Shown: positions 2,089 through 64,000 of the stretch, in pieces | Position numbering within the stretch: the first letter of the stretch is position 1 | How the letters are laid out: the number at the start of each line of letters is the position of its first letter | Origin: Cycas panzhihuaensis | Taxonomy: Eukaryota > Plantae > Cycadophyta | DNA: 64,000 bases | Assembly: GCA_023213395.1 (NCBI GenBank) | Contig: CM041465.1 | Location: 56,737,741-56,801,740, forward strand | Direction of reading: 5' to 3' | The notes under the pieces: model-generated | Seen by the model: only the letters and a program-made list of their open reading frames with translations | What the model was told of the DNA's origin: nothing | Databases searched by the model: none | Program-made: the position numbers and the translations under genes

Positions 2089-3433
2089 AACCCCTATCCC
2101 AAACCCTTCTGATGCTCCTGTTGATAATTCTTTGCCTTATGAGCCCATTTTGGCCATTTAAGATTCGTCTCTCCATCCATTGACTGACAACAAGTGGTAC
2201 ATGGATATTGTGCGATACCTCACCGAGTAGTAGTATCATCCCAATATGAGTAACAAGGTTAGGTCATGCATTCGGGCTACTACCAGGCAGTATTTTCTCA
2301 TAGGAGAGGTATTTTAGAAGAGGTCCTTTGATGGGATCCTTCTCCACTACGTCAACCCCAACAAGGTGGGCCAAATACTTCACGAATGCTATAACAGCAT
2401 TTGTGGTGGTCATTTTGAGGGCCAATCTGTTGCCTAAAGGATCCTTCGTATGGGGTATTATTGGTTGTCCCTCTTTAAGGATGCCCACACCTATGCCCTG
2501 AGATGTTGTCGTTGTCAAAAGCATGCTAACATCATCCATTTACCTTCTGAGGCCTTACACCCCATCATATCTCCATGGCCCTTCTCCCAATGGGGATTAG
2601 ACCTCATTGGGGCCATAACCTCACCTTCCTCATCGCAACACAAGTTCATATTGATGGCAATGGAATACTTTACTCAATGGGCCGAAGCAGTCCCTCTATC
2701 CTCTACTTCTGGCAAAATGATAGCCACCTTCATCTACCATCACATCATTTTTTGATTCGAGGTCCCTGACATCTTGATCACAGACAACAGAACCCCCTTC
2801 TGTAATAAGGAAATGGACAAATTTTGTGAGAAATTTAAGATCTCTCACAAAACCTCCTCTCCTTATTACCCCTAAGATAATGGCCAAATAGAATCTTTTA
2901 ACAAAACCCTCATAAACATCCTGAAGAAAACTGTCACCCAATCTAAAAAAGATTGGCACCTTCAAATTCCTCTTGCCCTATGGGCATATTGCACATCTAT
3001 CTGCATAGGGATGGCCCCATTCTCCCTTGTGTATGGAACTGAGGTAGTCCTCCCATTGAAAGTTGAGATCCCTTCCTTGCGAGTTTCCCTTTGGGGTCTT
3101 ATTGATAAGGAGTCTTACTGCCAGGCCCATCTCCTAGATCTCGAAGCCCTGGACAAGAAACGCTTGATCACCTATCAAGTAAATCTCGCCTCTAAAGCTA
3201 GGGCATGAAAGACATATAACAAATGCCTTTTCCCCTGCCCTTTACATCCTGGGGACCATGTCCTCAAGTTGGAATATCTCCATGATCGTTTGTCCAAGTT
3301 CAGACCTAAATGGGTTGGTCCCTTCGTCATTCTCGAAAACCTTGATAATGGCGCTTACATGATCACAACCTTGGAGGGTCTTGAATTTAAGAAAGTTATC
3401 AACCATAAGTTCCTTAAGAAATTCTACGTGTGA
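2089..3433 (+). pseudogene. pol: Tat-A integrase (degenerate)
   Basis: ECYNSICGGHF, GYYWLSLFKDAH...RCCRCQKHAN, SPWPFSQWGLDLIG, EYFTQWAEAVPL, PFSLVYGTEVVLP and KWVGPF...KFLKKFYV*, typical of Athila/Tat integrases. Confidence 0.9.
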
Positions 3434-4199: not shown

Positions 4200-6614
4200 C
4201 CATGTACTGCTCCTTGGTGCCCCTGCTCTCAAGGGGTATTATCTCCTGGCTAGTGTGATCCCTCCCTAGGAGACCACATGCCTCCTAGGCTCCTCCTACA
4301 CCGCTGTGAGCTCCCAACCTCACTCCCCTCGTCTCGAGGCCTCCTCGAGGTCATCGTCATCGTGTGGGTCTGAGTCTTGCTCTGCGACGACCTCGCTACC
4401 ATCTACTCCACCAACTGATTGTATCACCCCTAGATACGATCCCTCTCTCCCTCCACTCCTCGGAGCCTCTCCTCTAACACAACTATCCTAATGTAGCTCT
4501 CTGCATCGTCGCCTGCTGCTCCTCCACCCTAAGCCTCCAACGCATGTACTCAACCTTGTAAGGCATCCCTCTTCACGCGAATCCCATCCAACTCTCCTTG
4601 TAGTTGTCCTACCATCACCTAGTACTCTTGGGATTCTACCAACCTATGTCTGTGGTTCTGATTAGTGGGGCGAATGCCACTGTATGCGTCCCTGCTAATC
4701 AAGGCTCCTCCCTAGCCTGGATGGGAGGTTGCCCCTTCGCGTAGACCTGGGGGAATACCTCCTGGACTATTACCTCTATCAATCTCACCATCTCTGCTGC
4801 TCCTTCCAAGTCAAATATATCACGTGTTAGTATCCCCAAAAATAAATCAAAGCAAACTGTATAAGTACCTATTGGTCAAAAGATGATAGGAAGAGGTAGT
4901 GTCTCACTTCCTAAGATAATTGGCTCCTCGACTCAGACGACCACCTCCTCATCGGGACCTCCCTCGGTCATTCGTACCTCCTCCTCAACCTCGGGTACCA
5001 CCTCGCCTACTGCCTGGCCTACTAGGGCATCTCCTCCTCCCTCTGTCGCTGCCACTACTAGAGCTCTACCTACCACCCTCAATCTCTGCACTGGTGTGCG
5101 GGGTGGCCTACCTCCTCCTGCAGCTCCCAAAGGACCTGCCTCTCATCCTATATCCCTTGATGGACTAGCCACTCCTGATGGGCCTGCCCCGTCGCCTCCA
5201 TAATCACCTTCATCATCACCTCCATCTCCAGGACCACCTCCTAACCCTCCTACCTTGTCGTCGCTATCCCACCTCACTCCTCTATATGGGTTCACCGTGT
5301 AGTCTACCAGAGTGAGGAGGTCTAGCGATGTCACCTCTACTGACTGCCTAACATGTGCCTGATCCTTAGTCCCTCTAAACCGAGTCTGCCACTTGTATAC
5401 CATGGGCACTCTCGCTGAGATAGGGTGAGGTCCTCCTAGTGGTGCCACCACCCCAAAATGATAAAAAAGTAAATGATGTAGTAAGGTGTAATAGGAGAAT
5501 CCTCCTCTCCCTGCCACCCTGATAGCATCTAACTGGGCAACCATGTTTGCTGCTATCAGGGCGGCCCAATCTAGTCTCTCCATGGCCTCACATCTCATGA
5601 TCGTGTCCATCCATCTGCCTGGAATGTCTCTATAATTCTGTTTCTGGGAAATCTAGAACAGAATGGCCATTGTGATAAGTTTCCTTAACCGAGGAATCTG
5701 TGACATCACCATTGTCTCGACTGATATCCCCCACCTGTCCCACCTATCTTAACTAGTGAAGAATATAGGTGCCTCCCTGTGTGTAGTATCGGTGTTAGGT
5801 AGTGTCCCTAAAGATGTTGGTGCTCCTCCTATTGGTACACCCAAGATCCTCCTGATGTCTCCTAGCATGGTAGTAACGTCCCCCACTTGAGAAAGGTGGA
5901 AGACATACCGCCTGTAATCCCAATAGGTGACTATATCCACTAGGAGGCATTGATCCGACACATACTGGGGGGTCCTGATAATCTTCAGCAATCCACATCA
6001 CTCCAATATCCATCTATCCCCCTGTGTCATCATCTTTATGAAACTCATCATAGCAACTCTTATGTTTTCACAATTGTCCACTGCAATAACTGCCTTTAAA
6101 AACCACCCGAAAGTCAGTCACATCAATCCACACTATGTCTAGTTGCTCCTAGGATGCCCCTCATCTCACTCAAATGCGTCTGGCACCCTTTTGGGCCTAC
6201 TTTCCCTCTTTTTTCTCACTTTACACCTCTACCCTATGTTAAACTCTATGGTATCGCAGAGTTTGACATGGGCCTCACTGAGATTTCAGTATTTTCTCAA
6301 TGGCCCCGCGGTACACTCTGCGGCACCGCGATATTTGCCGCAGGGCCCTTCTTCCCCCCCATAAGAGGGGGGATGTCCAAAAACCCCAAAAAGTTTTATC
6401 TAGGTGGGCCAAAGCTACGCTGATTAGGACTAGGGTTGCCTAATGCCCTAGTCCTCCCACTCTTTAGACCCAAATCAGGCTCTATAGGGTCCTAAATTTC
6501 CCTTAAGGGGCCTGAAACTACTCTAAAAAAACTTAAAAACATATTAAATTAAATTGACGAAATGGAATAGTTAGGGGTTGATCCACTGACTGGATCCATC
6601 TTAGCTACTGCCAT
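4200..6614 (-). pseudogene. Tat-A antisense spliced PMD (Plant Mobile Domain, PF10536-like) gene; exons 6614-6591, 6093-4908, 4802-~4200
   Basis: LLVDIVTYWDYRRYVFHLSQVGDVTTMLGDIRRILGVPIGG and RLDWAALIAANMVAQL resemble the PMD motifs (W...HTFHLP.GE.TITL.DV..ILGLP..G; W...LA.LY..L). The GT-AG introns restore the frame. The 3' end is approximate. Confidence 0.75.
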
Positions 6615-7352
6615 CTCATTGCCCTAGTCTCGTTGGCTATCTCTACTCTTTGATCCAATGGTCAGATCTCTTGATGTGTGCCTCTGAAGTCAAGCGGTGC
6701 TCCACTGCATAAGGGAAAGGGCTCTAGATCAATTGTGAGCCCGTGAAAATGAACTTCATTTTCACCTTGTTTCCCTCATATAGGCAGAGGCCCCGATGAG
6801 AACTTTCTCCTTTCCTTCCTCCATGATAGCCCCTACAACTACTTTTTCTCCCATATCATTTTTGCCTTCTGGGTCTGTCCCTTGTTTCGCCTCTGTGGCC
6901 TCCTTTTTTTACCTTCCTAGTGCATTTATAATGACCCCTTCAGTCTTTTGCAAACCCCTTCTACCTCCATTTTCACACCACTCCAAAACATACCCATGTT
7001 TATACTCCTTTGGCTCATTTCACTGCCTTGGATCTGTTTTTGCTATTCGTTCGAGCCTTTGGAGTTCCCAAAAGAAGCACCTTCCCTATTTGAGGCCTCG
7101 CCTTAGTCCCTTTTAATGGCCTTTGGGACCTCGGAGGGGCCCTTTTGCCGTTGTTTCCTTCCCTTCTGTCGGGTTGGTCTCCTTGTCCCTGGGTAGCCTC
7201 CCTTTAGGGCTCTCCTATCCTTCACGATCCCTATTCATAGCCTTCCGAGTGCTTTGTAGCCCTATCGCTACCTCTCATACTTTTCTTTGCTCATCAACCT
7301 TGTCATCGCTTTTCTCCTTCTACCATCTAACCGAGACCCTCATCACCTTACC

Positions 7353-7775
7353 ATGGCATTGCTCATCTTTACCGATGGGGGAAGCTGTGGAAACCTAGGC
7401 CCTTCTTCCACTACGTGGATCCTTAGTGACCCCTCCGGATATGATTATATACATTCTGGAGTCTTCCTTCTTGAAGTTACCAATAACAAAGCTGAGTACA
7501 CAGCCGTTATCGAAGCCCTTACCGATGCACTCTATTTTCACTGCAAACCCCTCAATCTTCTTTGTGACTCTCAGGTCATTGTGTCACACCTTACCTAGGT
7601 TTACCAAGTACGTTGCCCATGCCTGAGAGCCCTCACCTTGATTTCTAGGTCCCTTTTATCTCATTTCTCTTCTGTAGATATCCGACATATTTCTGGGGAC
7701 CACAATGCTGAGGCGGATGACCTCATCTGTCTCATCCTTGAGCGTCGTCTCCCTCTCCTCGATAACCCCCCTTGA
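7353..7775 (+). pseudogene. Tat-A free-standing archaeal-type RNase HI (aRH), 140 codons, one internal TAG
   Basis: ACCATGG start. MALLIFTDGGSCGNLGP...TNNKAEY...CDSQVIV...HISGDHNAEADDL, with the D/E/D/D catalytic set present. Confidence 0.85.
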
Positions 7776-8260
7776 GGAACTTGTCTGGTCATTCAGGTGC
7801 CCAGGTTTTGGGCCATTCCATCTTCCATATTACGATCCGTTCATACCTCTGAAAGCTGGCCACTAATGAGGTTAAACTATGGTGACCATCAAGTTTGTTC
7901 TCTTCACTCTACCTTTCGTACCACTCCCGGTACAGAGTTCCAATTATTTTGATTCCCCTATGTAAATAGCATCCCATTCATAGCATTTGTTCGATCGTGT
8001 TGGTGACTATCATTGTTATTTATCTTGTACTTATGTGATGGGGGCATCCCCCTCATTTGCTTTCACCACCAGTCGACTTTAGGGTGACACATAGGCAACC
8101 CCTATACTGCCACTCTCTCATCTCCCTATCCACATGTCCCGACACGACACTCATCGTCACCCTTAGTTGATGACATTGTTGTATTTATTATATATTACTA
8201 GCATTTTATTGCTAGCATTTGCCATCACGTTATGCTTCTGAGTAATGAGGCTCTGTTGCC

Positions 8261-8270
8261 AAGGGGGCAG
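8261..8270 (+). other. Polypurine tract of Tat-A
   Basis: AAGGGGGCAG directly before the LTR-initial TG. Equivalent tracts lie at 19347-19356 and 43836-43845 (-). Confidence 0.8.
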
Positions 8271-11399: not shown

Positions 11400-14300
11400 T
11401 TCATTTCAGGTCCTAGCCTGAGGCTTCTTCCATTGAAGAGCCTATTCCTCTTCTCGAGTCACATGTTGTTACTCTTATTTCTTGTATGACTTCCCCTCTC
11501 ACTTCATCTTCCACCTCATCACCTTCCTCGAGTGGTGAGGCAAGAGAACCTCCTGTCGCTTGTCATAAGAGATTACCCTCTAACTCTTCTGAAGAGTCCT
11601 TTGACTATATCGAGTGGTAGGTCAATCACTATGGTCCCACTACTCCTCCTACTCCTCATTCCTCATCCTCTCTGAGTATAACTATCCATGGGGTAGAATG
11701 CTTCGAGAATGATGAGGCCTTATTAGAGCATCTAGTGGGCTCTATGCCCAACCTGCCTCTTGGTCACCATAAACTTGGTTACCAAAAGATTTTAGCCCTT
11801 GGATCACCCTTAACTAACCCAAGTCTACCTAATTCCTCTTCTCCCCTTCCTATTGACCAAGCCCCCCTTTATTTTAAGGAAGGGAATGCCATGTTCATGG
11901 GGGCAACCAAGGACATCATCCTTACTCTTGTCAAAGTCATCAAGGTGGGAGCAGAGTATTTCCCTGAAGAAATAAAGGAATACACCCTTCTTTTTCAGGA
12001 GTTCCATGATGTTTTCACATGGGATTACACTGACATGAAGGGGATAGACCCTTCCATTGTCACCCATAATCTTACTACTATTACTACCCTTCCATACCCC
12101 CTCCATCCTAAACTACCTGCCACCATGAAGATGGAAGTTAAGAAACTCTTAGACGTAGGGTTGATCACCTCCATCGATTACCCCAAGATGGTCTCAAACA
12201 TCATTTCCGTTGCTAAAAAGAACAGAATGATCTGGATATGTGTTGATTTCCATGATATTAACAATGCATGTCCCAAAGACAACTTCCTTCTACCTTTCAT
12301 CGATCGAACCACTGGATTTGAAGTCATGTCCTTAATAGACAGCTTCTCTATGTATAACTAGATCCAGATCTCTCCTAAAGACCATTACAAAATAACCTTC
12401 ACCACTCCTTGGGGTACCTTCGCTTACAAAGCGATGCCCTTTGGGCTAAAAAATGTAGGCATCACTTACTAAAGGATGATGCAATTCATCTTCCATGACC
12501 TCATAAATGAAACCCTTGAGGTCTTCATAGATGACATGATGGGCCTTTCACATAAAAGGACCTAGTATCTTGATGATTTATGCGCAATCTTTACTAGGTA
12601 TCACAAATATTATGTTAGCTTGAATCCTCTTAAATATGTGTTTGTTGTAACAGCCGACAAACTTCTTGGTTTCCTTGTTTTAAAACAAGGAATCCAGATT
12701 AACCCCAATAAAGTCAAGGCCAACCTTGACATGCCTCCTCCTAAGACTCAATGACAAATCAAGTTGTTCTTGGGTAGGTTGGGTTTCCTCAATCATTTCT
12801 TGGCAAACTTTGCCATAAATGCTAAACCCCTCACTAACTTATTGAAGAAGAGGGTCCCATTTGTTTAGTCTCCAAGGACCCATGAAGCTTTCCAAGAGCT
12901 CAAAAGAGCCTTAGCTTCTGCCCCGATCTTGGCATCTCCCCTCTTCAATTGACCTTTTATCCTTTACACATCAGCTACTAATGAATCCTTAGGGGCTATG
13001 CTTGCCCAAGAGAATGATTCAGGAACTGAGAGGGCTATCTATTTCATCAGTTATACCTTAGTTACTGCTGAGCTTAACTATTCCCCTGCCGAGAAGGAAT
13101 GCCTCGCCTTAGTTCATACAACCAAGAAATTTAGGCATTACTTGCTCAGTAACACCACTCAAGTGATTGTCCAATCTGATCCCTTGAGATATCTCTTAAC
13201 CAAATCTGACTTGACTGGTAGGACTGGCAAGTGGGCCATCCTCCTTCAAGAATATGATCTCCAAATCATTAATAGGAAGTCAAAGAAGGGGATGGTGGTC
13301 ACCAAGCAGCTAAATGACGCCCCCATCCCTAATTCTTCAAACATTCCTATTGATGATTCCTTGCTGGACAAGCCTATCCTTTCTGTGTAAGACTTATTCC
13401 CCCTATCCATTGGCTGATAGTAAATGGTATGGGGATATTGTGTGATACCTTACTGAATAGCAGTATCATCCTAATGCTAGTAGTAAGGTAAGCTCATGTG
13501 TTAGGGCCATTACTAGGCAGTACTTCCTCATGGAGGAGGTGTTGTGCAAGAGATCCTTTGATGGGGTCCTCCTTTGTTACGTCAACCCTAATGAGGCAAA
13601 CCAAATACTTCGTAAATGCCACAATGACATTTGTGGAGGCCACTTTAGGGGCCAATCCATGGCCTAGAGGATCCTTCACATGGGTTAGTATTGGCCATCT
13701 CTTTTTAAGGACGTCCATGCCTATGCTTTGTGATGTCGTAGGTGTTAAGAACACGCCAATGTCATCCATTTGCCTTTTGAGGCCCTACATCCTATTATCT
13801 CTCTATGGTCTTTTTTCCCAATGGGGATTAGACCTCATCGAGGCAATAACCCGTCCTTCTTCATTGCAATACAATTTTATCTTAACTACAATAAAGTATT
13901 TCACTAAATGGGCCGAAGCGGTCCCCTTGTCTTCCACTTCTGGTAAGACTATAACTACCTTCATCTACTAATATATTATCTGTCAATTTGGGGTTCCTAA
14001 TATCTTGATCACAGATAATGGTACTCCCTTTTGTAATAAGGAAATTGACGAGCTTATCAGAAGTTTAGGATATCCCACAAAACTTCTTCTCCTTATAACA
14101 TCTCAGGCCAATGGCCAAATCAAGTCCTTCAATAAGACTCTTATAAACATCAACCTCGAAGCTTTAGACAAGAGACGCTTGATCGCATATTAAGTGAATT
14201 TCACCTCTAAAATTAGGGCACAAAGAATGTATGATAAGCATCTTCACCCTTTCCCTTTTCATCCTAGGGACCATGTCCTCAAACTAGAATATCTCCACAA

Positions 14301-14448
14301 TCGCTTGTCTAAATTTAGGTCTAAATGGGTTGGTCCCTTTATCATTCTCGACAATCTTGACAATGGCACCTATAGGATTGCAACTCTAGAGGGTCTCAAG
14401 TTTGAAAAAGCCATCAATGGTAAATTCTTAAAGAAATTCTATGTGTGA
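11400..14448 (+). pseudogene. pol: Tat-B pol: RT, RNase H, integrase (degenerate; ~220 bp deletion in INT near 14150)
   Basis: EFHDVFTWDYTDMKGIDPSIVTH, WICVDFHDINNACPKDNFLLPFID, MPFGLKN, EVFIDDMM, AELNYSPAEKECLALV...FRHYLL, WAILLQEYDL, FSQWGLDLI and KWVGPF...KKFYV*. Confidence 0.92.
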
Positions 14449-15249: not shown

Positions 15250-17724
15250 ACATCAAAACTCCTTGATACCCTACCCTTAGGGGGTATCATATCCTCGTCT
15301 GTGAGATCCTATGCCAGGAGACCACATGCCTCCTAGGCTCCTCTGACGTCACTGTGAGCTCCTTGCCTCACTCTCCTTATCTTGAGGCCTCCTCTAGGTC
15401 ATTGTTGTCGTATATGTGTGAGATCTGCTCTGCGATGACCTAGTGGCAATCTGCTCTACCAGCTGATCATATCTCACCCAGATACGATCCCTCTCCCCCT
15501 CTGCTCCTTGGAGCCTCTCCTTTAGCACGATGATCCTGATCTAACTCCCCACATCTCCGCTTGTTGCTCCTCCTTCTTAGGACTCTAATTCCTGGACTTG
15601 GCCTTGTAGGGCATCCCTCTCTGTAGCTATCTAGTCTATCTCTATGCAAAGTCCATCTAGCACACCCTGCAATTGTCCCATCCTTGCCTAATGCCCCTAG
15701 GACTCTATCGCCCACATGTCCCTATTATGATCAATAGGTTGAATATCGTTGTGTGTGTCCCTGCAAATCGAGGCTCCTCGCTAACTAGGATAGGAGGTTG
15801 TCCCTTTGCGTAGACCTGGGGAAATAACTCCCAGACTACTACCTCTAGTAGTCTTGTCATCTCTGTTATGCCTGCTAAACCATGCATACCACGTGTCAGT
15901 CTAATATATATATGTATGAAAGCATCTAAATCAAATCAAAGTAAATTATCTAAGTAACTAGTGATAAAAAAGACATCAAGTTAGGGTAGTGTCTCACCTC
16001 CTAGGATAGTTGGCCCCTCGACTATAATGATCACCTCCTCTACAGGAGGTCTCTCAGTTACTGCCTCAGCCTCCTCTGCCTCTAGCACTATCTCCTTTAC
16101 CTCATGGCATGTTGGAGCACCTCCTGCCTCTACTCCTCCCTCCGTTGTAGCTACTGCCACCTTTGATGCTACCACCATAGCCATGGTAGCTGTTGGAGCT
16201 CTACCCACAACTCTCTCTCTGCCTACAGGCGTATGTGGTGTCCTGCCTCTCCTTTCAGGTAACGATGAGCCTGCCTCACCTCCTGCAACTCCTGATGGGC
16301 CTGCCCCATCGCCTCCATCATCACTTCCACCCTCATTGGGCTCATCTCCTAGCTCCCCTGCTATGTTGTCACTCTTCTAGTGTACCCCTCTATATGGATC
16401 CATCGTGCAATCTACTATAGTGAGTAAATCAAGTGGCGTAGCCTCCACTGACCTCTGTACGTGAGCCTAGTCCTCTATCCCTCCAAACCAAGTCTACCAT
16501 CTATGGACCATAGGCGCCTGCACTGAGATGGGATGTGGTCCTCCTGATGGTGCCACCGCTCTGAAGTGGTCGAAGAACAAGCACTATAATAATGTGCAGT
16601 AGGAGAATCCTCCTCTCCTGCTATCCAAATCTAATCTAGTTATGCCACCAGGTTGGTTAGTATCAAGACAACCCAATCTAGCCTCTCCCTGACCTTACAC
16701 CTCCTGACTATGGCCAACCATCTACCCGATATGTCTCTATAATTCTGTTGCCATGAAATTTGAAATAGAATAGCCAATGTGATAAGTTTCCTCACTCAAG
16801 GAACTCTGGACATCACCATCACCTAGATCGACACACCTAATCATTCCCACCTTCCCTGTCTTGTAAAGAATGTGGCTGCCTCTGTGTGGGCTGCGTCTGT
16901 GCTAAGCAACGTGTCTAATGATGATGGTGTTCCTCCTACCAATACACCCAAAATCCTCCTAACATCGCCTAGTGTGATAGTAATGTCCCCTATCTAGGGA
17001 AGATGGAAAACATGCCTCCGTCGATCCCACTGGGAGATAATATCTACCAGGAGGCACTGGTCTAATGCATATTGGGGCGTCCTAATGATATTTAGGAGCC
17101 TACAATGACTTAGAGTCATCCTATCTCACCTCAACATCATCTCAATGAAGCTGAGCATGGCCATCCTGATATTCTTGCACTTATCCATTGTGATAACTGC
17201 CTACAAACAATCTAGAAGTCAGTCCATAACTCCTCACCTACATGTCATGTTGCCTCTTCGATGCCTCGTGCTCCATCAGAGTAAGCTAAGTCATCCATCG
17301 GGCCTTATTTATTCTTTTTTCCATTATGCATTCTCTGCCCTACTTCAAACTCTATGTTATTGCAGACTTTGACACGAGCCCCACTGAGAATTTCTCGTCT
17401 TCTCAGCAGCCCCGCCACAAATTTCATAATACCATGATCTTTGTCGTGGAGCCATTGTAATCCCCCCTAAAAGGGGGCGGGGGGGGGCTAAAAAACTCTA
17501 AAAACTTACCTGAGTGGTCCAAGGCCTGGCCCATTGGGATCAGGGCTACCTAATACCCTAGTCTTCCCCCTCCCAAGGCCTCATTTGAGCTCTAAGTGGT
17601 CCTGATTTGCCCTTAAGGGGCTAAAACTAAGCCAAAAGACTACAAAAAATCCATGAACTTGAAGTAACGAAATGAAAGGGATAAGGAATGATCCACTTAA
17701 TAGATCGAGTCTGGCTAACACCAT
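15250..17724 (-). pseudogene. Tat-B antisense spliced PMD gene; exons 17724-17701, 17200-15998, 15871-~15250
   Basis: LLVDIISQWDRRRHVFHLP...DITITLGDVRRILGVLVGG. Same exon structure as Tat-A. The intron-1 donor is mutated (TTAAGT). Confidence 0.75.
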
Positions 17725-18441: not shown

Positions 18442-18864
18442 ATGGTACTACTTATCTTCACTGATGGAGGAATTCGTGGTAATCTAGGACCTTCTATCGC
18501 CACATGGATCCTTCATGACCCCTCTGGATATGACTATATGCGTTCTAGAGTCTTTCTCCCTAAGGCCACAAATAACGAAGCTGAATACACAGCTATTATC
18601 GAGGCCCTTACCAATGCACTTCACTTCTACCATGGTCCCATCATCCTCCTTTGTGACTCTTAGATCATCATATTGCAACTTACCTAGATTTACCATGTGC
18701 GCTACCCACATTTGACAACCCTCGCTTCGACCACCAGATCTCTCCTATCTCATTTCTCCTCCATGGATATTCAACATATTCCTTGAGACTTAAGTGTTAA
18801 GGTAGATGGCCTTGTCCGTCGCATCCTCGAGCATCGTCTCTCCCTTCTTGACGATCCTCCCTAG
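18442..18864 (+). pseudogene. Tat-B free-standing aRH, 140 codons with internal stops
   Basis: ACCATGG start. MVLLIFTDGGIRGNLGP...ATNNEAEY...CDS. Same length as the Tat-A copy. Confidence 0.85.
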
Positions 18865-37639: not shown

Positions 37640-37840
37640 TATTAGAATATAATGTTTTATCCTAATAATATTAGAGAAAAGGGGCAATGTGCTTAAGACC
37701 CTCATTATATTTAATTCTTATGTTTAATGTTACAATTATGTAATGGTTACAAGTCTGTTGTATATAAAGGAGGTTTTTCTCCATCAATAGAGTGAGTCTA
37801 ATTCCATTCTTCCTCATAATTGAGGGTCTGATTTTCTACA
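37640..37840 (+). repeat. Copia-2 5' LTR
   Basis: Direct repeat of 42636-42836; ends TCTACA before the PBS. Confidence 0.95.
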
Positions 37841-42836: not shown

Positions 42837-42989
42837 AATCCTACCAAACCTAAGACACTTATCAGTATGAGGATCCATATCACGCTCAAGAGCCATATCA
42901 AGCTTACAGCCAAGATTGGACCTAAGGGTCTAATCTATATGGGCAATGAAAAGCTACAAAAATTTGGAGATAGTGGAATAACACTTTCT

Positions 42990-43835
42990 TGTTTACACAA
43001 TAGGCCTAGGGTGTTTTCTCTTAGAGAAAATATGTAGATCCCACAATGCCAACTCCAAGTACTAATGTGTTACATGAGTGTGGGTTATAAGGGAATTATA
43101 TGGATGGTGTTTTGGAAGGAAACTAAATTGAGAGCATGAGTGGGTACATGTATATATGGGAGAAGTGAATAAGTTGGTCCCCTAAACTAAACCTATGGTC
43201 ATCTATAGGGTAAACAGATAACACACATAACATGTAACTATATGCCATTTAATTTTTTATAAAAGCAATCTACTTTAAGAAATGCTATAAATTTTCCTTG
43301 TAGATTTGTAACTCTTAATAAGTGGTTCCTCCTTGTGTCTTGGGTATTATGATAAATAATATGCACACACTAATTCCTACTCCTAAAATGGATGTGATGC
43401 AAGGAGTTTAGAATGCAAAAGAATGACTAATGAAAGAAAGAAAGAAAAAAAAAAGTTTTTTTTTTTTTTCTTTTATGGAAAGAGAAACAAAAGGGGAAAA
43501 GGGGGGAATGGAGAGTAAATGAATGAGCAAAATTACTTTCCTTTTTTACCCTTTTCCTTTCTATAAATAAAATAAATCAATTCATCCCCCCAGTAGAGGA
43601 AATATCACCTTTTTAATCCCAAAGAGCCTGATGGGTAGACTAAATGGCTATGGACCAAAGTTGTACTTATTATCGGTAAAATGGGACATGGACAAGTAGT
43701 ATGTATAAGCAAATAAAGCATACATGTGCTACTTAAAATCAAATATAAATCAATAGAGTATAAACAAAGTAGTAATGCATACCTACATTACTTATATATC
43801 ACCATCTCCATGCCATTACCAAAAACCCAGAAACG
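42990..43835 (-). repeat. Tat-C 3' LTR (~845 bp), PPT at 43836-43845
   Basis: The minus strand reads AAAGGGGCAG|CGTTTCTGGG (TG mutated to CG). Clear direct repeat with 63379-64000. The left boundary is approximate. Confidence 0.8.
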
Positions 43836-44841
43836 CTGCCCCTTTGGTAAAATAACACCTTCAATCTAAAGCTAGAAGATGGTGAATGCTACCAGCATAG
43901 ATGATGTAAGATGCAATAATAATAATCAAATGTATATATATAACATGGGGCAATGCTTTTCATAGGGTGCCTCATTAGTAGAAGGTTAGAGGGTGTTGCC
44001 CTTAGTTTAGCCTCTTAAGAAAACTATGTTAGAGGAGTACAAGCTAAGGAGAATTATGGGTCGGTGACCATATCAGTCCCCATAGGCCTATGTCTACAAG
44101 CTCTAGACGTGTATGAAATGGAGTGTTAAATAATAGAAGCATTGTCTTGATGGTAAGATGAGATGGGTGGCATGGCCCAAGAATAGGGCTTTGAAGCCCC
44201 AAACCCTTAGATATATAAAACAGTGCCTTAAATACCCAAAGGAGAGACTTAATGAGTTAGAGTGGGTCACCATAGTTTAACCCCATTAGTAGCCATCTTT
44301 TACATGAGGAGTTATTTAGGCTCTTCTCAAAGACTTTTTTTTTTTTTTTTTTTTTTCAGGTTTTATGTTTTTTTTACATTTTTGTCATTTTATATTATTT
44401 TTGGGTTTTATTATTTTTTTTTATTTTTTTGTAATATTTTGTTAGTTTTATGATTTTTTTAAAATTTTTCAATGGTTTTATATTATTTTTTGGGATTTTT
44501 TGAATTGTTTACTAGAAAAAGAAATAGACAAATTAAAGAAATGACAATAAAATAGTAGAAAGGATAAGGATATAAGACACCAAGGGGTAATGCAACCTAG
44601 AAGGGCCATGACCTAGTCTAATATATACAAGTATACAAGGTAGTTTACCCTCATTTTGAAGTATGGTGGTAGTTTAGGCTCTCATTAGAGCATAAGGGAA
44701 GCTTTGGTAGTAGGGCATAGCTTCCAAAGAGGGCTAAATGTGCTTGAGGTTACCACCATAGTTTAGCCTCTTTAGTGAGTACCCCTCAGAGATGAGACTA
44801 GGGGGATTGCCCTCTAAGCATATATCTCAATTGGTGGCCTA

Positions 44842-45270
44842 TTAGGCTAAAGAAGGGATGTTTGGTGGTGGTAAATGATGCTTAAGGATGAGATCCACTA
44901 ACCTATCCATTTTAGTGTTAAGTTCATGAGGAATATGGTGGATTAACATAAAAGAAAACTAGGCCAAAAGGGACCTAGTAAGAGTGGTTAAAGATCTCAG
45001 TTGTGAGCAATTAACCTATTAGACCTAAGTTAGCTAGGACATAATAAGTTAAGAGTCATAATATAGAATAATGGGGCCACTATGGAAATATATTACATCC
45101 ATTAAGGCCTCCATAATGGTAAGGTACTCGACCATGTCATTGGCAACAAAAAATATGTAGACTCTATATCGGATAAGGGTGTGCCCATGGTAATCTTGAA
45201 TGGTCCATGCTACAACAAGAGGCCCCAGATTTCCATGACTACCCCCATCGGTATGGATGATCAATGCCAT
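44842..45270 (-). pseudogene. Tat-C free-standing aRH
   Basis: CCCATGG start. MALIIHTDGGSHGNLGP...ANDMVEY...YDS. About 143 codons with stops. Confidence 0.8.
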
Positions 45271-46829: not shown

Positions 46830-49200
<2,371 letters not shown>

Positions 49201-49351
49201 GAGGGTGTGAGAGAACTTGTGTTTTTAAGAGTAAAGGAAAGTTGGACCTCTAGGGGTATAGAATTTATATATACCAAGGCCCCATTAGGTGATTATATAC
49301 TCTTGCAAGGATTCTAACTCCCCCATGACATGTTTTACTTATATCCATATT

Positions 49352-49714
49352 TGACATGATTAATGATTAGTCCTCCTTGCTTTGAGCATAAGTTTTCCCT
49401 TAGAAAGAAGAATCTTCAGGCTTCAGAGTTTTCCCAAGAAGTCAAGACCTGAATAAAGCTAGAGGAAAGCTAGGAAGGAATGTCTTCTCTTCTTTTTTCA
49501 TTAATTCCTTTGAAAGTTGTACATATTTATACAAACTCAAGTTAGTTTGTATATGAGATGTGTCATCTGTGTACTTAATTAATAATTAGGTACCATAAGT
49601 AACTTTTATAATGTTATGTATACCTAATTAACAATTAGGTACCCTAAATATCTTTTTATAATATTACTTTAGAAAACAAGACTAGGACTATACTCATTAG
49701 GACTACACTTATCA
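49352..49714 (-). repeat. 3' LTR of nested chromovirus
   Basis: Direct repeat of 54981-55342; adjacent to the PPT. Confidence 0.93.
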
Positions 49715-52700
49715 TTTCCTCCCTACTTAAAAAAAATTGGCCCCAATTTCTATTGAAGATGAGGAAAATATTCTTGGAGTGCTGATGCAAAGACCTATTT
49801 GGCTTTAGTGGGTAGAGTCCCTTTTCAACTAATGAGATATATGGTTGTAGTGTATTGTTACACTCGTCGATGTCGAGTGTCAAAAATAGTATCTTTAGAA
49901 AGAAGAGGCTAGAAATATGGAATTATATCAAGAGGATGAGTAGGAGGAGGTTCAACTTCCAAATGTGATACCACATATAACTTGAGTTGATTAATATTAA
50001 CAACATCATGAATACCCAGATAAGTAGGGAGATCAAGGCAAAAAGCATTTGGTCCTATTACTTGAAGGATAGTATAGGGGCCAAACTAAATAGGTTTAAG
50101 CTTATGGTGATGCTTAAATTATTTGTGATCAAGTCAAAGCCAAACTTGATCGCTAACCTTAATGGAACTTGTAGAATGATATTGATCTTGAGCAAATTTA
50201 TATTTGACCTATGTTTGATAAAGTATCTGGCTAATCTTACAATGTAGTTTGGTAAAAGGAAATAGCTTTTTGTTGTTCCTTTTATTCATGCCCTACCACA
50301 AAAGGAGGTACAACAAGGGAGAGTTCATAAGGAGCAAGTGGTCAATATCCATAGCAAACTTCGAAGATAGATTGTCCAAGAGAAACGTGAGTTGCTCAAT
50401 TATAACTATGTTGGATATGATGAAGATGTGTATCCCATTATTTATTACTATATTGGTAAATACGAAATGCATGCACCAAGGTGTAATTTACCACTTCTAT
50501 TTATCCATTAGTATGAGGATGGAATGATGTGGAAAATTTTAGTTGACAACCAAGCATCTTTCAAAGAAATTTCCAAAACTGGCTAAAAAATCTATTATCC
50601 TTGTCAAAAATTATAGAAAGGGGAAGTCCATAATAAGTCCAAACATATTGAAAAAATAAGTCTACTATATGGTGAGCAGAAATATTTTTTGTATAGGGAA
50701 TAAAAATTACCATTTTAGAAAACCTATAAACAATGATGAATATATAGTCGTGACCATGCTAAGTTGTAGAAAGGCCACTAACGAAGTCCATCAAAATAGA
50801 TTCCCATGGTCCACTAGGAATAGGAAGTGGCTAATAAAGTCCAAGTTTATGATTAGATTGTTTAGACTAACTGTAGAGAGAGCAATGTTGTACATAATCT
50901 CCAACTATATTTTGCATTGAAGGCTAATAAAAATATAGTTGAAGATGTTGAAGAGTTTTATGCATTCTAAAATATCTACCATAAGTTAAAGAATGATCTT
51001 ATTTAAGTATCTATTATTGTAGAGTGCCCATTAGAACACATAGACAATTTACTTTATAGTGGAGTCTATTTTTGAGATGATAATCTAAAAAAGGCTCAAG
51101 ATTTGTTTGTGTGGGCTAAGATAAAATAGTAAGGATAGGACCAAAGTGGGGATCAAAAGGAAGCAACTGTTACCATTCCAAATATGGACTGAGTGTGGTG
51201 TTGAGGAATGAGGCTAAGGCTAGGGTAGGAGGTCAGTTGAGGAAATCAACTACTTTGTTAGAAACTCCTTTCTTATATTTAATGACTAGTTGAAATTATT
51301 GAATATTAGAAGCCCATTTAAGATGTCTATGTTCTTGGATTTTGGATTGGGAGTTAAGAAATTATAATGGTTGGTGATTAGTATGAATAATGGTTTCATT
51401 GCCTAGGAGAAAGTGTCTCCAATGACGTAGAGCTTAGACAAGGGCATAAGTACTGTAATTGAGTTTGGCCTAGGAAAAGATTTTAAAATGATAAGCAATA
51501 GGATGTCTTCCCTACTTGAATGGCACCAAGGGAAAATTGGGAAGCATCAGTTTCTAATTTAAAGGGTTGAGTGAGACTTATAAGATGAAGAATAAGTGCA
51601 GTACAAAGGGTAATTTTGAGTTCTTAGAAAGCGGATTTAGAAGAGAAGTTCCAAAAAAAACTTATAGAATTTTTGGTAAGAATGTTGAGAGGATGTACAA
51701 TGCTAGAAAAGTGAGAAATGAATTTCCTATAAAAGTTAATAGAACCCAAAAAACTTTTGAGCTCAGTTAGAGTAGAAGGGGTTATCCATTGCTAAATTAT
51801 TCAGGCATTTTCTAGATCAACATGGATGTCATTTTCATTGATGATGAATCCTGGATAAGAGATAGATTTTTGTATGAAGAAACATTATTTAAATTTGGCT
51901 TTGAGATGATGTTGTAGTAATAAAGCCATGACTATATCAACATGATGTAGATATACTTCCAAATTGTTGCTAAAGACCAAGATATCATCAAAATATACAA
52001 TGACAATTTTACCCAAATGAGGGCAAAATGTATCATTGATAAGTTGTATAAAAGTAGCAGGAGCATAGTCAAACCAAAAGGCAAGACTAGCCACTTATAA
52101 AGGCCATTTTGAGTCTTGAAGGTTGTTTTCCATGTGTCCTAAGCATTGACCTGAACTTGATGGTATCCAGAGGCTAAGTCAATCTTTGTAAAATATTTGG
52201 CTCCTTTGAGATGATCTAATAAATCATCAATGTGTGGCAGTGGATATCAATTTTTAACAGTGATTTTGTTAAGAGCTTGATAGTCAATATACAAATGACA
52301 TTCTTTATTCTTTTTTAGAATGAGAATTGCAGGTGAACCACAAGGAGAATAGTTAGGTTGAATTTTACCTTCATCAATCAGCTAAGCCAATTATCTCTCT
52401 AATTTAGCACATGTAAGAGGAGTAGTGTAATAGTGTGAATGTTGCATAGCACACATGGGAGATAGTCCCTTAGGTTTTGCAAAAACATCAGAGTATGCAT
52501 CTAAAAGAGATTTTATTACTTTAGGAAATATCTTGGTATAATTTTCTTTTTCTTCTTGTCAGATTACACAAAGTACCATTTACTTAGAGGTGTTGGCAAG
52601 TTTGACTGTAAGATTGTCTATGATTATAACTAAGGATAGAGAAATACTATCTATTGAAGTTAGTTTATATACCTTTCCATTTTTATATAGTGTATAAGTG

Positions 52701-53985
52701 TTCTTATATACATCATATAAGGCTCATCAATTATGTTGATAAGATCATCCCAAGAGAATGTTATTATAATCCATAGGAGCCACATCATAATCAATTATAT
52801 CTAGAAATGGTAGAATAGCAAAAGTAGCAGTATATATTTTATTGACCACCATTGTATGACTATTAGCTTTTACCCACCTAAGAGTATAAGGCTTAGGGTG
52901 TAACTTGGTCACTAATTGTAAAGAATCCACCAATGATTAAGAGATCAAGTTCTCCATGCTTCCATTATCAATGATACAGAGAGCCAAGTGGTCCTTAATT
53001 TGACAATTTTGTCTAAAAAGTCTCTCTTATTAAGAAGCAGAATATTCAGTGGTCATTAGCACAAGATGTGGTTTTAGAGCTTGTAAATTAGGGATCTCTA
53101 TGACATCAATAGATTCTATTAGTGTCTAATGTTTAGTGATCAAGGTGCGAGATTTATGATGTGATCGATATTTAGCATCTATATGGCTTTGGCTCTTATG
53201 TAAAGAACAATATTTTTTTTATTAACCATATGTGGCACATTAAATGCCTTGGAGGTTGATGAAGATGTTAGAGATGGTCATGGTCTTTGTTGTAGTTTAT
53301 TTTTAATTTTAAGGGCAAATTAATAAGCAACTTCAAGTGTATGAATCTAAAGAATATCCATTTCATGCTATAAAGATGAAAAGAGACCTCTAATAAATTT
53401 CAATTTAAGAATGTAGTCAGGTTCAGAGACTACTAACCATATAGAAAGTTTGATAAACTCATCAATGTATTATTGAATTATTTAGCCTGCAACTTGTGAG
53501 AGGTAAAGCCAATGTGTAGTGAGTCCATCAATGTATCCCAAAGGATAGAATTGACTATGGACAACACTTTTGAATTCAGCCTAGGAAACAAGTGGTTTAT
53601 CACGAGAGTATACCTACCATAATGTTAGTGCCTGTTCTTCTATATGTACTTCAACAACAATTATTTTTTGTACCTTTGTGAATTACTATATCTTAAAATA
53701 GGCTTCCAGACTTCAAAGCCATACATCTAATTTATCTGTATTTATCATACCTTTAAAAAGGATAATACTGATTTTAGCATCTGAATTGAATGGAGAATGA
53801 AGATGGTTGGATCGAAATGACTGTTGGGATGTTCTATTGGTGTAAGATTTGTTGAAACATGGTCATCATGATTATGACCAAATTTTGCTAAAAAGTTTAA
53901 GCATCTTGATGTTGATCATGAGGCTCTTGTATTAAGAGTTCAATGATATCTAGGTGTGATTGATCCTCTTGATTAGGAGACATGA
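49715..53985 (-). pseudogene. pol: gag-pol of the nested chromovirus (gag, PR, RT, RH, INT, C-terminal chromodomain-like relic)
   Basis: CIIDNGSMENLIS...LHPKPYTLRWV (PR), [13 protein letters not shown] and [11 protein letters not shown] (RT), IIHTNHQPL (RH), PWESILMDFVSGL (INT). Confidence 0.88.
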
Positions 53986-53993
53986 TTCTATGT

Positions 53994-54225
53994 GGGGTAC
54001 GCTTGCCTATGAAAAGGGCTTATGGTAATATGCCCGATCAACTACAAATATAAATTTGTATGGGGTATGCCTACCTATGAAGAGGGCTTATGGCAGTATG
54101 CCTAATTAAAGATAAAGGAGAAATTGTTTGGGGTACGCCTGCCTATAAAGAGGGCTTATGGCAATATGCATAATGAGCACAAAGGAAATTTGTACAAGGT
54201 ATGTTTGCCTATGAAGACGGCTTAT

Positions 54226-54230
<5 letters not shown>
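53994..54230. repeat. Tandem repeat, ~68-bp period, 3.5 units, in the chromovirus 5' leader
   Basis: Units start at 53994, 54062, 54130 and ~54196. Core GGGGTAYGCYTRCCTATRAARAGGGCTTATGGYARTATGC. Confidence 0.9.
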
Positions 54231-54316
<86 letters not shown>

Positions 54317-54337
54317 GTGTGTGTGTGTGTGTGTGTG
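54229..54337. repeat. Compound (AT)n(GT)n microsatellite
   Basis: Read directly from the sequence. Confidence 0.97.
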
Positions 54338-54980
54338 GAGCCTAAAAAACTTGAGAATATGAAAGGTAGAAAAATTTTCCTAGAAAAAAATTTCTTTTAG
54401 GCCTGAAAGTATAGTTTCATATGGATGTATGGTCATGCAGAAACGTATGACCAAAAATTGAAATGGATCTCAAATGAAAGGTATTTGAGTTGTCTATTGG
54501 ATTCTGTAGTTAGTTTTTTGATTTGGCTATTTTGATTTGCAGATATTAGAGTTTAAAAGAATTTCAGTGACTAGGGTTTCAAAGCTATTTTTATGCATTT
54601 AAAAAAAATATAGAATTTAATACATCAAATCTATACTGAAAAGATAGATTTGTTTAATATGAATATCTTAAGACCAGTTTGAAATGATCTGCCTGACATT
54701 TTAAAGAGAAATCTGCATTTGTAACTTTAAACATGCACCCTTCATTTTTTAGTAATTTCTCAAAATTTTAGCGAGATTCTGGCCTCGATCCTTTGGAAAA
54801 ATCTGTTGGCCATACTATTATGCACCTACTGATAAATTTTCATTGATTTATGAGCACTTTTCTATTTGTCTACACAATTCTATATGGTGTTCATACCACT
54901 GTCTGTACACTTCTACAATGGCTAAAAAGAAATTCTTTTGGGTCTTCTTTAGGCAATTAACCTTGCTCTAATACCAAAAT

Positions 54981-55342
54981 TGATATGATTATGATTATTC
55001 CTCCTTGCTTTGAGCACAAGTTTTTCCTAAGAAAGATGAATCTTTAAGCCTCAAAGTTTTCTCAAGAAGTCAAGATTTGAATAAAGCCAGAGGAAAGATA
55101 GAAAGGAATGTCTTCTCCCATTTTTTCATTGATTCCTTTAAAAGTTATACATATTTATATAAACTCAAGTTAGTTTGTATGTAAGACATATCATCTGTAT
55201 ACCTAATTAATAATTAGGTACCTTAAGTAACTTTTACAATCTTATGTATACTTAGTTGATAATTAGGTACCTTAAGTATCTTTTCACAATGTTGCTTTAG
55301 AAAAAAAGACTAAGACTATACTCACTAGCATTACACTTATCA
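54981..55342 (-). repeat. 5' LTR of nested chromovirus
   Basis: Adjacent to the Met PBS; direct repeat of 49352-49714. Confidence 0.93.
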
Positions 55343-55962
55343 ATATTGTACCCTTCCTTGTATATATGTATACAAGGACCACTCAATTCCCCAACATTCT
55401 TTTGTATGTTGGTGTACTAGTATATGGATATATATGCATGCATCCTATTATTTTTGTGTATCGATGTATGCTTTATTTTTCATGTATGTTTAAGTTGATA
55501 TTTGCTCTTGTGCATAACAACATAGCTCATACATGTATATATGGCATTATAGTTCATACACATAGCACTTAAAAACCACATGAAATAATATTACATAGTT
55601 GGCTACTAGTTTATACTCATGAAGTAGTTTCATGCCCTATTATGGGGCAAAACTTAGTCGATGGCCAGAGATGGTAGAGAGGTAGGGAATGTCATGTGGT
55701 GAGGCGTCCTCTATGGGGGTAACAAACCCACGGGAAAAAGTCGTTTAGGCTCATTTTGGAGCTAAGAGCCCACATAGGGAAGTATCCTTACCTATGGTGA
55801 AGGATGGGGTATAATGGGAGTGGCATGGTGCCTTGCCCTAGATGGGGGCACTTAGCACCATCATCAAAGGTAATTTAGGTTTATTTCATAGTAAGTTGGC
55901 AGTTTAAGCTCATATCAGAGCTTGTCGACAGTTTAGACTCATACCATAGCAAGTTGTCCCTC

Positions 55963-58900
55963 TACATTATAGGGTGAAGAGGTGAACTATAAAACCTCTT
56001 AAAGAACTACCCATTGATGGCTTTCTCAAACTTAAGGCCTTCTAATGTAGTAATCTAATACATCCCATTGCCAAGGATCTTGATAACCATAAAGGGGCCA
56101 ACCCATTTAGAGCCAGAAATAAAGAGGTGATCATATAGATATTCTAGTTTGAGGACTTGGTCCCCAAGAAGTAGGGGTCATGGTCATAGGTGTTTATTAT
56201 ACATCTTTTGGGCTTTGACCATAGATTCTAAGTTGGCTTGGTAGGCAACAATGTGTTTGCAACAATGTGTTTTTCATCTAACACTTCAAGGTCAATGAGA
56301 TGGACTTAATGACACCACTCTTTATCTACAATCTCTTTAAGAGAAACCTATAAAGATGGGATTTCTACTTTGATCTGAAAAACTACTTCTAATTTATAGA
56401 CTAAGGAGAACAGTGTCATACTCATAGCTATCAGAATGGATGTTTGATAGGCCCACAAGGCCAAGTAGTGTTAGAGGTACCAATCCTATTAGGAGTGGGC
56501 AATGATCTTCATTAAAATATTAATCAAGGCCTTGTAAAAGGCTTCGATCTATCCATTGGCCTGAGGGTAATATGGGGAAGAGGTTTTGTGAGAAATTTTA
56601 AATTTCTCATAAATCTCATCTATCTCTTTATTATAGAATGGGGTCCTGTTATCAGTGATGAGGTCATCATGGACCTTGAACCTATAAATGATATGTTGGA
56701 ACACAAAAGTGATGATCATCTTACCCATAGTGGAAGAAAGAGAGATCTCCTCAACCCACTTGGTAAAGTATTCTATGGCTGCCAGAATAAACTTATGTTA
56801 CACTGAGGAAGGAGAGGTGATGACCCTAATGAGGTCAAGACCCCATTGGGAAAATGGCCATGGCGACATAATAGTATGTAATATCTCAAAGGGCTAGTGT
56901 ATGACACTAGAATGCTCTTGGAATTTATGACATCATTATGTATAAGCATGGGCATTCTTAAAAAGGATAGGCTAATAGAATCCCATGTGAAGGATTCTTT
57001 GCGCTATAAGTTAGCCCTTAAAGTAACCATTGCATTGTTATCATGGCATTTGAGAAGGACTTGGTTGGTTTCCTTAGGATTGACACAACAAAGGAGGATG
57101 TCATCAAATGATTATTTGTATAACACATCCTCGATGAAGAAGTATTATCAAGTAGAGGCTTTCATGTATAGCTTAAGCTTCTCACTGGTGGTCATAAGGT
57201 ATTTTTGTTGAGTTAAATAATTGGCAATATCACCATACCATTTACTATTTTCCAACTTAGGCCCCTTAGTTTGTTGAAGGGAAAGGATTAGTTCCTCAGG
57301 TAGAGAGTCGTCAACTGGTGCATTTACAAAATTAGGGAGAGAGGCATAAACAAGTTACTCAGTCATGACCATGTCCTTTTTGGATTTATGGTTGGCAACC
57401 TTCAAGTTGTATTCTTAGAGGAGGATGGTTCATTTGTCTATTCTTCTTGCTAAATTAGATCATGTCATGAGCTAATATAATAGGTCTGATTGGATGATTA
57501 CATAAGTGGTGTTACCAAGTAGGTAATGCTAGAGCTTTTTGATGGCAAACACCAAAGCCAAGCACTCCTTTTCAGCTTGTGGGTAATTTACTTTGGTTGT
57601 GACGAGGGTCTGATTTATAAAATACATGGCTTTTTTGACCTTTAAATTGTCCTCTTGGGTGAGCATGATGTTGACGAATTCTTTAGTTGCTGAGGTGTAT
57701 GGGATGAAGGGCCAATCAAATTATGGTGGAGTTAATGTAGGAGCTAAGAGAAGGGCTTTCTTGAGCTCTTGGAAAGCTTCTTGGGGCTTGCAAGACCAAA
57801 TAAATGGGGTCCTCTTTTTAAGCAGGTTAGTTAGTTAACAACTTTGCATTGGTAGCAAAGCCCACTAAAAATTGCCTCAAGAAGCTTAAATGACCCAAAA
57901 ATAACTTGATTTATCATTGACTCTTAGGAGAAGGCATCTCTATTATGGCCTTGACCTTATTGGGGTTAGCTTGGATCCCTTGTTATGAAACTAGAAAACC
58001 CAATAATTTGTTGACCATAATTGTGAAGACGTATTTGAGTGGATTGAGGCTCGCATAATATTTGCTATACTTGAGGAATATCTTTCTGAGGTTGGTGGGA
58101 TGACTGGACCTCTTATGTGAAAGGCCCATTAAATAATCTATAAAAACCTCAAGAATCTTGTTAATGAGGTCATGGAAGATGAAATACATGGCTCATTCGT
58201 ATGTTACACTAATATTCTTGACACCAAAGGGCATAGCATTATAGGCAAATGTTCCCTAGGGAGTTGTGAGAGCAGTCTTGTGGTAGTCTTTAAGGGATAT
58301 CTAGATTTGATTATAACCTAAGAATTCATCCATTAATGACATGACTTCAAACCCCATGGTGTGATCAATGATTTGATTGATAAATGGGAGGGGGAAGTTA
58401 TCCTTGGGATAAGCATTATTAATATCCCTAAAATTTACACAAATCCATATGATCCCATTCCTTTTGGCCACCGGGACTATATTAGATACCCACTTAGGGT
58501 AATCTATAGAGGTGATAAGGCCAATATTATACAACTTTCAACCTTCATCTTCATCACAGTTGATAGTTTGGGGTGTAAGGGTCATTGTTTTTGTTTGATG
58601 AGCTAAGTACCTAGGATCATTATGAGGTTATAGGTGATAATGTCAAGATCGATGCTCTTCATGTTAGTATAGTCCCATACAAAAGCATCAAAAAACTCAT
58701 GAAAGAGTTCTATGTACTCCTTGACTTCCTAGGGGGAATATTTGACCCTAATCTTGATGACCTTATCAGAGGCAAGGATAATGTCCTTAGTTGCCCTGGC
58801 ACATAAATCATTCCCTTCTTCAAAATGGAGGGGGGTTTGGCTAATTGCTAAGTTAGGTAGAGCATCATGGTATTAGGGTTGGTTAAGGGTGAACCAATGG

Positions 58901-63212: not shown

Positions 63213-63378
63213 AGGCTAAAGGTCTTGCTTAGATAAAAAAAGATAAGGAACAAAGACACCCTATACAAAACTCAAGATTCACAAATGAGGGAAATAAATG
63301 CCTAAAGTTTCAAAAGGTGCTTCCTACCAGTGACTCTCTAGTATAGTTATCAATGAAATGCTACAAAAGGTTCTTTAT

Positions 63379-64000
63379 TGTCTACATGATAGGCCTAAGG
63401 TATATGGTTTTAGCAGAAATATGCAAGTCCCACATATAAATGCCCATGAGTTACGTGAATACAGGTTTCAAAGGAATTATATGGATGGTATTTTAGAAGA
63501 AAACTAAACTAAGGGAATGAGTGGTTGTATATGCATATGGGGGAGTGAATGAGTTGGTCCCCTAAATCAAACCTATAGTTGTCTATAGGAAAAACAGATC
63601 ATACACCTAACATGCAACTATATGTTATTTAGTTTTTTATGAAAACACTCCACCCTAAGAAATGCTACAATTTTCTCTTATAGATTTGGGACTAGCAACA
63701 AGTGATCCCTCCTCATGTCTTAGGTATTGTGATAAACAATATGCATATACTAATTCCTACTCCTAAAATGGATACGATGCAAGGTATTTAGAATGTAAAA
63801 GAATGACTAATAAAAGAAAGAAAGTGAAAAAAAAAAAAAAACATTATTTCTATTTTGTTTTTCTTCTTTTTTTTTTTTTTTTTTGTGGAAAGAGAAACAA
63901 AAGGGAGAAAAGGGGGAATGGAGAGCGAATAAATAAGCAAAGCTACTTTTCTTTTCTACCCTTTTCCTTTTTATAAATAAAATGAATCAATGCATCCCCT
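63379..64000 (-). repeat. Tat-C 5' LTR (inner part; continues beyond window)
   Basis: Colinear with 42990-43590, e.g. GGAATTATATGGATGGT, GTTGGTCCCCTAAA and CTAATTCCTACTCCTAAAATGGAT. Confidence 0.85.

Follow-up and report, generated by a model that had tools for sequence, protein, structure and literature searches.

Conflicting reports, set out in the accessible part of PMC13468544, describe the archaeal-type RNase H (aRH) of Tat Ty3/gypsy retrotransposons either as a part of pol or as a separate 3' ORF. A 64-kb stretch of the Cycas panzhihuaensis genome (contig CM041465.1, positions 56,737,741-56,801,740; hereafter, the window) contains decayed Tat elements for which the question can be put in three parts: where aRH lies with respect to pol, whether it was once a gene in its own right, and what an RNase H encoded outside pol may have done. 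PMC4408406, PMC6317226, PMC11963269, and PMC13468544 are cited throughout from their accessible parts.

Position of aRH relative to pol

A tblastn search of the window with the protein of the first copy (copy A) identified three aRH copies, A, B, and C, and nothing else of note (Table 1); the third copy (45270-44842, minus strand) is absent from the original prediction. Translation confirmed the predicted length of exactly 140 codons for copies A and B. Copy A has a single internal stop, a TAG at codon 82 (7596-7598), and its protein is 63 and ~46% identical to those of copies B and C, respectively. With X placed at this stop, it matches the Pfam families RVT_3 (4e-12) and RNase_H (7.5e-9), and its residues 3-132 match the RNase H chain 3u3g (140 aa; 4e-16), the best of 26 solved sequences. 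Judged by such matches to solved RNase H chains, the RNase H fold of aRH is settled, and by its sequence the frame is identified as an archaeal-type RNase H1. The four acidic catalytic positions, which had been noted for copy A alone, are kept in all three copies (D8, E48, D72, and D122). Archaeal-type RNase H has a fifth active-site residue, at position 115, which none of the copies keeps; this position is invariant in all 81 prokaryotic relatives and is altered in three different ways in copies A, B, and C. We infer that none of the three copies is able to make an aRH protein today.

Pol ends with its own stop in all copies. The distance from this stop to the aRH ATG is 3.9 and 4.0 kb in A and B, respectively, close to the ~4 kb that had been predicted, and 10.7 kb in C, including a nested element of 6.0 kb. 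It had also been claimed that RH runs into the integrase with no aRH between them in B and C, and both junctions bear this out: residues 660-774 of the Vitis pol P0004, which hold its fused aRH, are matched in B by only 28 nt (13387-13416), and ~40 in-frame codons separate RH from the integrase in C. At the RH-integrase junction, element A is collinear with B; before position 2091, it has nothing homologous to B. Throughout the window, tblastn places aRH downstream of the integrase only; neither the RH-INT interval nor the region ahead of RT contains one.

An antisense ORF with a plant mobile domain (PMD; pN/pS 0.41-0.58) lies between the pol stop and aRH, and in A it stands head-to-head with aRH, ~1.25 kb apart. 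Because the 4-kb spacer holds this antisense gene, aRH is not the unspliced end of pol, and an unspliced pol-aRH fusion is ruled out. The order gag-pol(RT-RH-INT), antisense PMD, sense aRH, PPT-like motif, and 3' LTR holds in all three copies, with LTR ends fixed for element C only and not for the tandem elements A and B. The polypurine-tract-like (PPT-like) motif is common to all copies and lies ~0.5 kb (A and B) or 1.0 kb (C) past the aRH stop. In C, which is just over 15 kb long without its 6-kb insertion, aRH lies inside the LTR pair and before the PPT-like motif, and thus in the 3' internal region.

Table 1. Coordinates of the aRH frames and of the associated features of elements A, B, and C in the window
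Feature	Position	Strand	Remarks
Solo aRH ORF, copy A	7353..7775	+	140 codons and stop; internal stop at codon 82
Solo aRH ORF, copy B	18442..18864	+	140 codons; 3 internal stops
Solo aRH ORF, copy C	44842..45270	-	142 codons; 6 internal stops; belongs to element C
Pol remnant, element A: RH-INT linker and integrase	2091..3433	+	Stop 3431-3433
Pol, element B: RT, native RH (Ser for first catalytic Asp), integrase; without aRH	11933..14448	+	Stop 14446-14448
Pol, element C: RT, native RH (Ser for first Asp), integrase; without aRH	55962..58764	-	
Antisense PMD ORF, element A	5070..6100	-	Pfam PMD ~5278-5979, E 2e-6, below curated cut-off
Antisense PMD ORF, element B	16380..17215	-	Pfam PMD E 2e-7, below curated cut-off
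Antisense PMD-homologous ORF, element C	47302..48136	+	tblastn to A frame 6e-39; no Pfam hit of its own
Unrelated Ty3/gypsy element inserted in C between pol and PMD ORF	49345..55342	-	370-nt LTRs, 86% identical
Conserved non-coding 36-mer past aRH stop	7852..7887	+	~90% to B 18942-18977 and C 44300-44265
PPT-like motif, element A, then TG (probable 3' LTR start)	8260..8270	+	Same motif in B at 19346
PPT-like motif (43846-43836) and 3' LTR, element C	42974..43846	-	1.0 kb past aRH stop
5' LTR, element C	63353..64000	-	Truncated by window edge; 80.5% (500/621) identical to 3' LTR
Decayed primer-binding-site-like 18-mer	63335..63352	-	Directly behind 5' LTR of C

The 18-mer behind the 5' LTR of C agrees at 11 of 18 positions with what we take to be the tRNA-Arg-type primer-binding motif. 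Six of the seven differences are of the deamination type. Taken alone the motif is weak, and an 11/18 match arises somewhere in the window in 7 of 20 shuffles. Allowing up to three mismatches, no tRNA-Arg (or His) primer-binding site was found in the 64-kb window, and no primer-binding site was found between the tandem units A and B. The 36-mer that follows aRH shows much stronger conservation than the sequence around it and has four occurrences in C (44791-44000); it is a candidate packaging, polyadenylation, or strand-transfer signal.

Elements A and B are arranged in tandem with a spacing of ~11.1 kb (2091-24000). The units are only ~68% identical, and weak matches (9727/20832 and 11216/22374) hint at a third one that would begin past B. 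At its truncated start, element A is abutted by the integrase, with a Tf2-type SH3 domain, of another Ty3/gypsy element (1-1900). Downstream of the PMD domain of A, a minus-strand stretch (4200-4620) has a low pN/pS (0.44) and a coiled-coil-looking translation, and could represent either the terminal part of the PMD gene or another antisense ORF. A reverse-strand segment at 40113-41362, 56-65% similar to 22538-23729, is probably a further Tat fragment. The window also contains a 199-nt direct repeat of 90% identity (37642-37840 and 42638-42836), three 68-nt tandem units (53982-54185), and long TA microsatellites (48384-48500).

Past selection on aRH and the stop shared at codon 82

Between A and B, the aRH frame has a pN/pS of 0.46 (bootstrap 0.32-0.62; 137 of 140 codons; counting method with transitions weighted 6:1 and stop columns dropped), compared with 1.13 and 1.14 in the 300 nt upstream and downstream, respectively, and with 0.32-0.36 in the integrase. 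Mismatches at codon positions 1, 2, and 3 number 34, 24, and 59. No indels occur within the 423-nt frame, as against 11 in the 600 flanking nt, from which ~8 would be expected inside the frame. The CCATGG start is invariant in all three copies, compared with 95 of 350 columns in the upstream alignment, and the nearest upstream in-frame stop lies 31, 18, and 22 codons before aRH in A, B, and C, respectively. Thus aRH is a separate gene outside pol that was formerly under purifying selection. The original prediction that it is a gene with a CCATGG start and a stop of its own, and not a pol domain, holds for all three copies and agrees with the unselected flanks. The antisense frame of aRH was also considered as a gene and rejected: its pN/pS is 0.48, but it contains seven shared stops and only mirrors the third positions.

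The upstream flank also bears on whether aRH could be an exon joined to pol by splicing of a 4-kb intron that holds the antisense gene. This arrangement would account for a 2015 description of aRH at the Pol C-terminus, and has a parallel in Ogre elements, which splice between gag-PR and pol (PMC4408406). The sequence before the ATG is pyrimidine-rich, and A and B share an AG ~20 nt upstream, but this AG is not aligned in C, and the upstream sequence is unselected and contains seven one-base indels. In addition, the start Met is present in all three copies at the natural start position of free RNase HI, and pol has a stop of its own in every copy. We therefore regard a spliced exon as very unlikely and retain the separate gene.

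The family to which these elements belong is abundant in several related organisms: 58,566-67,837 contigs per run matched over 2900-9200, and all 30 bins were covered in each of four runs. In three of the four runs, a few DNA contigs pass directly from the pol end to the motif at 7862, with PMD and aRH left out (3502-7863); the sides of these joints are only 21-23 letters long, and they may reflect a related family without the cassette or chance joints.

Codon 82 is TAG in all three aRH copies, and it is the sole stop common to all copies among 754 aligned codon columns (140 in aRH, 342 in the integrase, and 272 in PMD). That copies only 47-63% identical in protein share it could mean that the stop was programmed, with full-length aRH produced only through leaky read-through that limited the enzyme dose. 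Selection persists past codon 82 (pN/pS 0.51; 0.32-0.78), and 78-87% of the contig depth in three DNA runs keeps the letter of copy A at 7596. However, other letters are found at this position in 94-102 contigs per DNA run, and the mapping under-reports differences from the reference letter: it has no entry for 7572, a position at which copies B and C each depart from A. The elements are also heavily deaminated: CG, CAG, CCG, and CGG are depleted in all copies (observed/expected 0.0-0.57 for CAG, CCG, and CGG), and CTAG is enriched 1.45- to 1.79-fold. Decay rates of ~0.25, 0.3, and 0.45 per copy over 18 comparable columns lead by themselves to an expectation of roughly one shared stop. Position 15 provides a control, being invariant in all 81 prokaryotic relatives and changed in all three aRH copies by two different codons. 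On these sequence comparisons, the TAG is most likely the product of recurrent methyl-cytosine decay, a reading that we hold with high confidence, and programmed read-through is highly improbable.

A still more elaborate proposal, to which we give scarcely any credence, is that a captured prokaryote-type RNase HI was expressed from a bidirectional internal promoter shared with PMD, its output throttled by a family-wide amber codon 82 that needed read-through. If true, this would be a recoding-controlled, trans-acting RNase H within an LTR retrotransposon.

Published relatives and origin of the solo aRH

The aRH layout is that of the published Tat structure #3, or TatIII, the placement being made by architecture rather than by RT phylogeny; since this architecture has already been published, the layout is not a discovery. 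In structure #3, aRH lies in a separate ORF in the order RT.RH.INT.aRH, and the structure has been reported in Pinaceae (Tat H) and in Cycas and Ginkgo (Tat I), where it accounts for 68% of 2,906 aRH-bearing elements in Cycas panzhihuaensis; in Pseudotsuga, its share is 31.6% of 65,496 (PMC10508981). The main text of that paper places this aRH 'upstream of pol', while its Table S3 gives INT.aRH. The same structure is named 'post-integrase', with a 'solo aRH' ORF, in PMC13468544, and on the accessible descriptions we equate it with TatIII, in which aRH follows the integrase in elements of 12.7-17.3 kb that are mostly tRNA-Arg primed (PMC6317226), and with gymnosperm lineage III, described with an antisense PMD ORF and with aRH at the Pol C-terminus (PMC4408406).

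The window elements share with structure #3 the order RT-RH-INT followed by aRH as a separate ORF (A, B, and C), the D-E-D-D core of the archaeal RNase H1 type, and a decayed native RH (B and C), and no categorical difference was found. They further share the antisense PMD ORF in the 3' part with lineage III, and the length of C without its insertion falls within the range of TatIII. The published text, as far as accessible, gives neither a location of PMD between the integrase and aRH nor the 4-kb distance, both of which may be recorded in the element table and FASTA supplement of PMC6317226. An aRH at the Pol C-terminus, as stated in the accessible part of PMC4408406, is impossible here without splicing. 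In structure #4 ('pre-capsid'; mosses and Selaginella tamariscina), aRH also occupies a separate ORF outside pol, but it precedes gag, whereas the aRH of C follows pol and comes before the PPT-like motif and the 3' LTR; tblastn over the window detected no aRH match between the 5' LTR and pol of C. Ogre/Retand and other structure #1 elements (P0002, P0003, and P0004) have a related RT, a decayed native RH, and an archaeal-type aRH, and the RH of P0002 is 53% identical to that of B. Their aRH, however, is fused in pol between RH and INT, and the fused aRHs are only 18-32% identical to those of the window. Free archaeal-type RNase HI proteins (3u3g, 4e19, 3hst, and the prokaryotic set below) resemble the window aRHs in length (~130-150 aa), start, and the four acidic residues, with 28-40% identity, but are encoded by cellular genes, not carried by a retroelement.

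The prokaryotic set comprises 84 loci (L001-L084; 4 + 80 from metagenome and genome scans), all encoding RNase HI and found with a scan pattern that itself selected an aRH-like N-terminus. One of them, L003, encodes a 143-aa protein that starts at the same Met as aRH. In L001 (922-1383) and L003 (8001-8432), the N-terminus of the RNase HI is close to that of the window aRH, and by eye a DNA-methyltransferase-like gene lies directly behind each. Protein searches with the aRH of copy A, which covered 26 candidates of similar length and 545 longer ones, yielded nothing at E<=1e-10; word-based searches of this kind are weak for a decayed query. With the RH of B as the query, nine longer proteins were found, four of which have a fused aRH, and none was close enough to belong to the same family.

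It had been proposed that the solo aRH may represent a stage before fusion into pol. On such a reading, it would descend from a prokaryote-type RNase HI gene that was captured separately and became fused only later. The window aRHs do score higher against prokaryotic RNase HI (bit scores up to 87) than against fused Tat aRH (up to 50), but the prokaryotic set was picked by similarity to the query and only four fused aRHs were compared. In the accessible parts of the literature, lineage III aRH falls in a clade of its own with a bacterial enzyme (PMC4408406), and clusters H/I are basal to the fused clusters J-L (PMC13468544). Our aRH tree of 49 rows (three from the window, four fused, and 42 of the 81 extracted prokaryotic rows, the other 39 being left out) joins copies A, B, and C in one clade (100/100), with deep branches unresolved; a single clade of solo and fused aRH is not rejected (p-AU 0.61), and the tree neither separates nor joins the two. 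The fused form, moreover, is already present in hornworts, clubmosses, and ferns, and PMC10508981 withdraws the idea of multiple captures and takes fused aRH as ancestral and structure #3 as a later rearrangement. A stage before fusion thus finds no support, and we consider a separate capture unlikely.

Decay of the native RH and a proposed role in trans

In both copies that preserve the native RH (B and C), Ser replaces the first catalytic Asp, with the intact Ty3/gypsy RH P0010 as the reference. Reverse transcription of LTR elements needs RNase H, and with a native RH that lacks the first catalytic Asp, it needs another source of this activity. The elements contain three decayed copies of the solo aRH gene of a post-integrase Tat Ty3/gypsy family, and on sequence grounds this gene probably supplied RNase H in trans for reverse transcription. 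The element's own RH domain is predicted to be inactive, and the solo aRH would have taken over the RNase H step, its protein joining the complex of RT and its tether, or the particle, non-covalently. The same decay of the native RH accompanies aRH in all aRH-bearing Tat structures, whatever the position of aRH (PMC10508981).

This association is also relevant to the suggestion in the original prediction that the solo aRH acts outside the particle, for example by clearing R-loops at loci of the element itself. Such a role would suit a protein that stands alone, matches cellular RNase HI in size, has no link to Gag or Pol, and is encoded beside another accessory gene (PMD). Its 140 codons, however, leave no room for a hybrid-binding domain or any other extension, and both the loss of the first catalytic Asp and the decay of the native RH with aRH in every position make replication the simpler need. 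An R-loop function consequently gains no support and appears quite improbable, and the in-trans supply of RNase H for reverse transcription remains our preferred reading.

In the genomic RNA, aRH is the third ORF and follows both a stop and a 4-kb spacer, so that it would need a message of its own, and the prediction that it requires its own or a subgenomic transcript is thus judged right from the layout. The simplest source of such a subgenomic message would be an internal promoter in the 1.25- to 2-kb gap between the divergent PMD and aRH genes; spliced RNA would be an alternative. An accessory gene of Grande elements, which a title cited in PMC11963269 describes as transcribed from its own promoter, provides a precedent. 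Upstream of the aRH ATG, no signal for transcription start or splicing is conserved in all three copies, and the stretch of C from PMD to aRH does not align with that of A or B. Five contigs with <90% identity over aRH, in one run guessed to be RNA, are uninformative on transcription, and no report of solo aRH transcripts or activity was found in the literature searched, which lay largely outside subscription journals.

The stop at codon 82 in all three copies and the loss of the fifth active-site residue from all of them are counterpoints to the in-trans reading, and the path of a free 15-kDa aRH protein into the particle is an unexplained difficulty for it. How aRH works from a separate ORF, and with it how such a solo enzyme is made and comes to meet the reverse transcriptase, is a question already raised in PMC10508981.

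The present locus adds a data point to the disagreement, described in the accessible part of PMC13468544, over aRH as a part of pol or as a separate 3' ORF. It also sharpens the question of PMC10508981 into that of an RNase H made outside the polyprotein and replacing a decayed native domain, and the divergent layout of PMD and aRH shows where to seek the promoter. If RNase H was indeed supplied in trans, this would be an unusual way of dividing the functions of reverse transcriptase, with a natural parallel in the retroviral pair of tether and RNase H.
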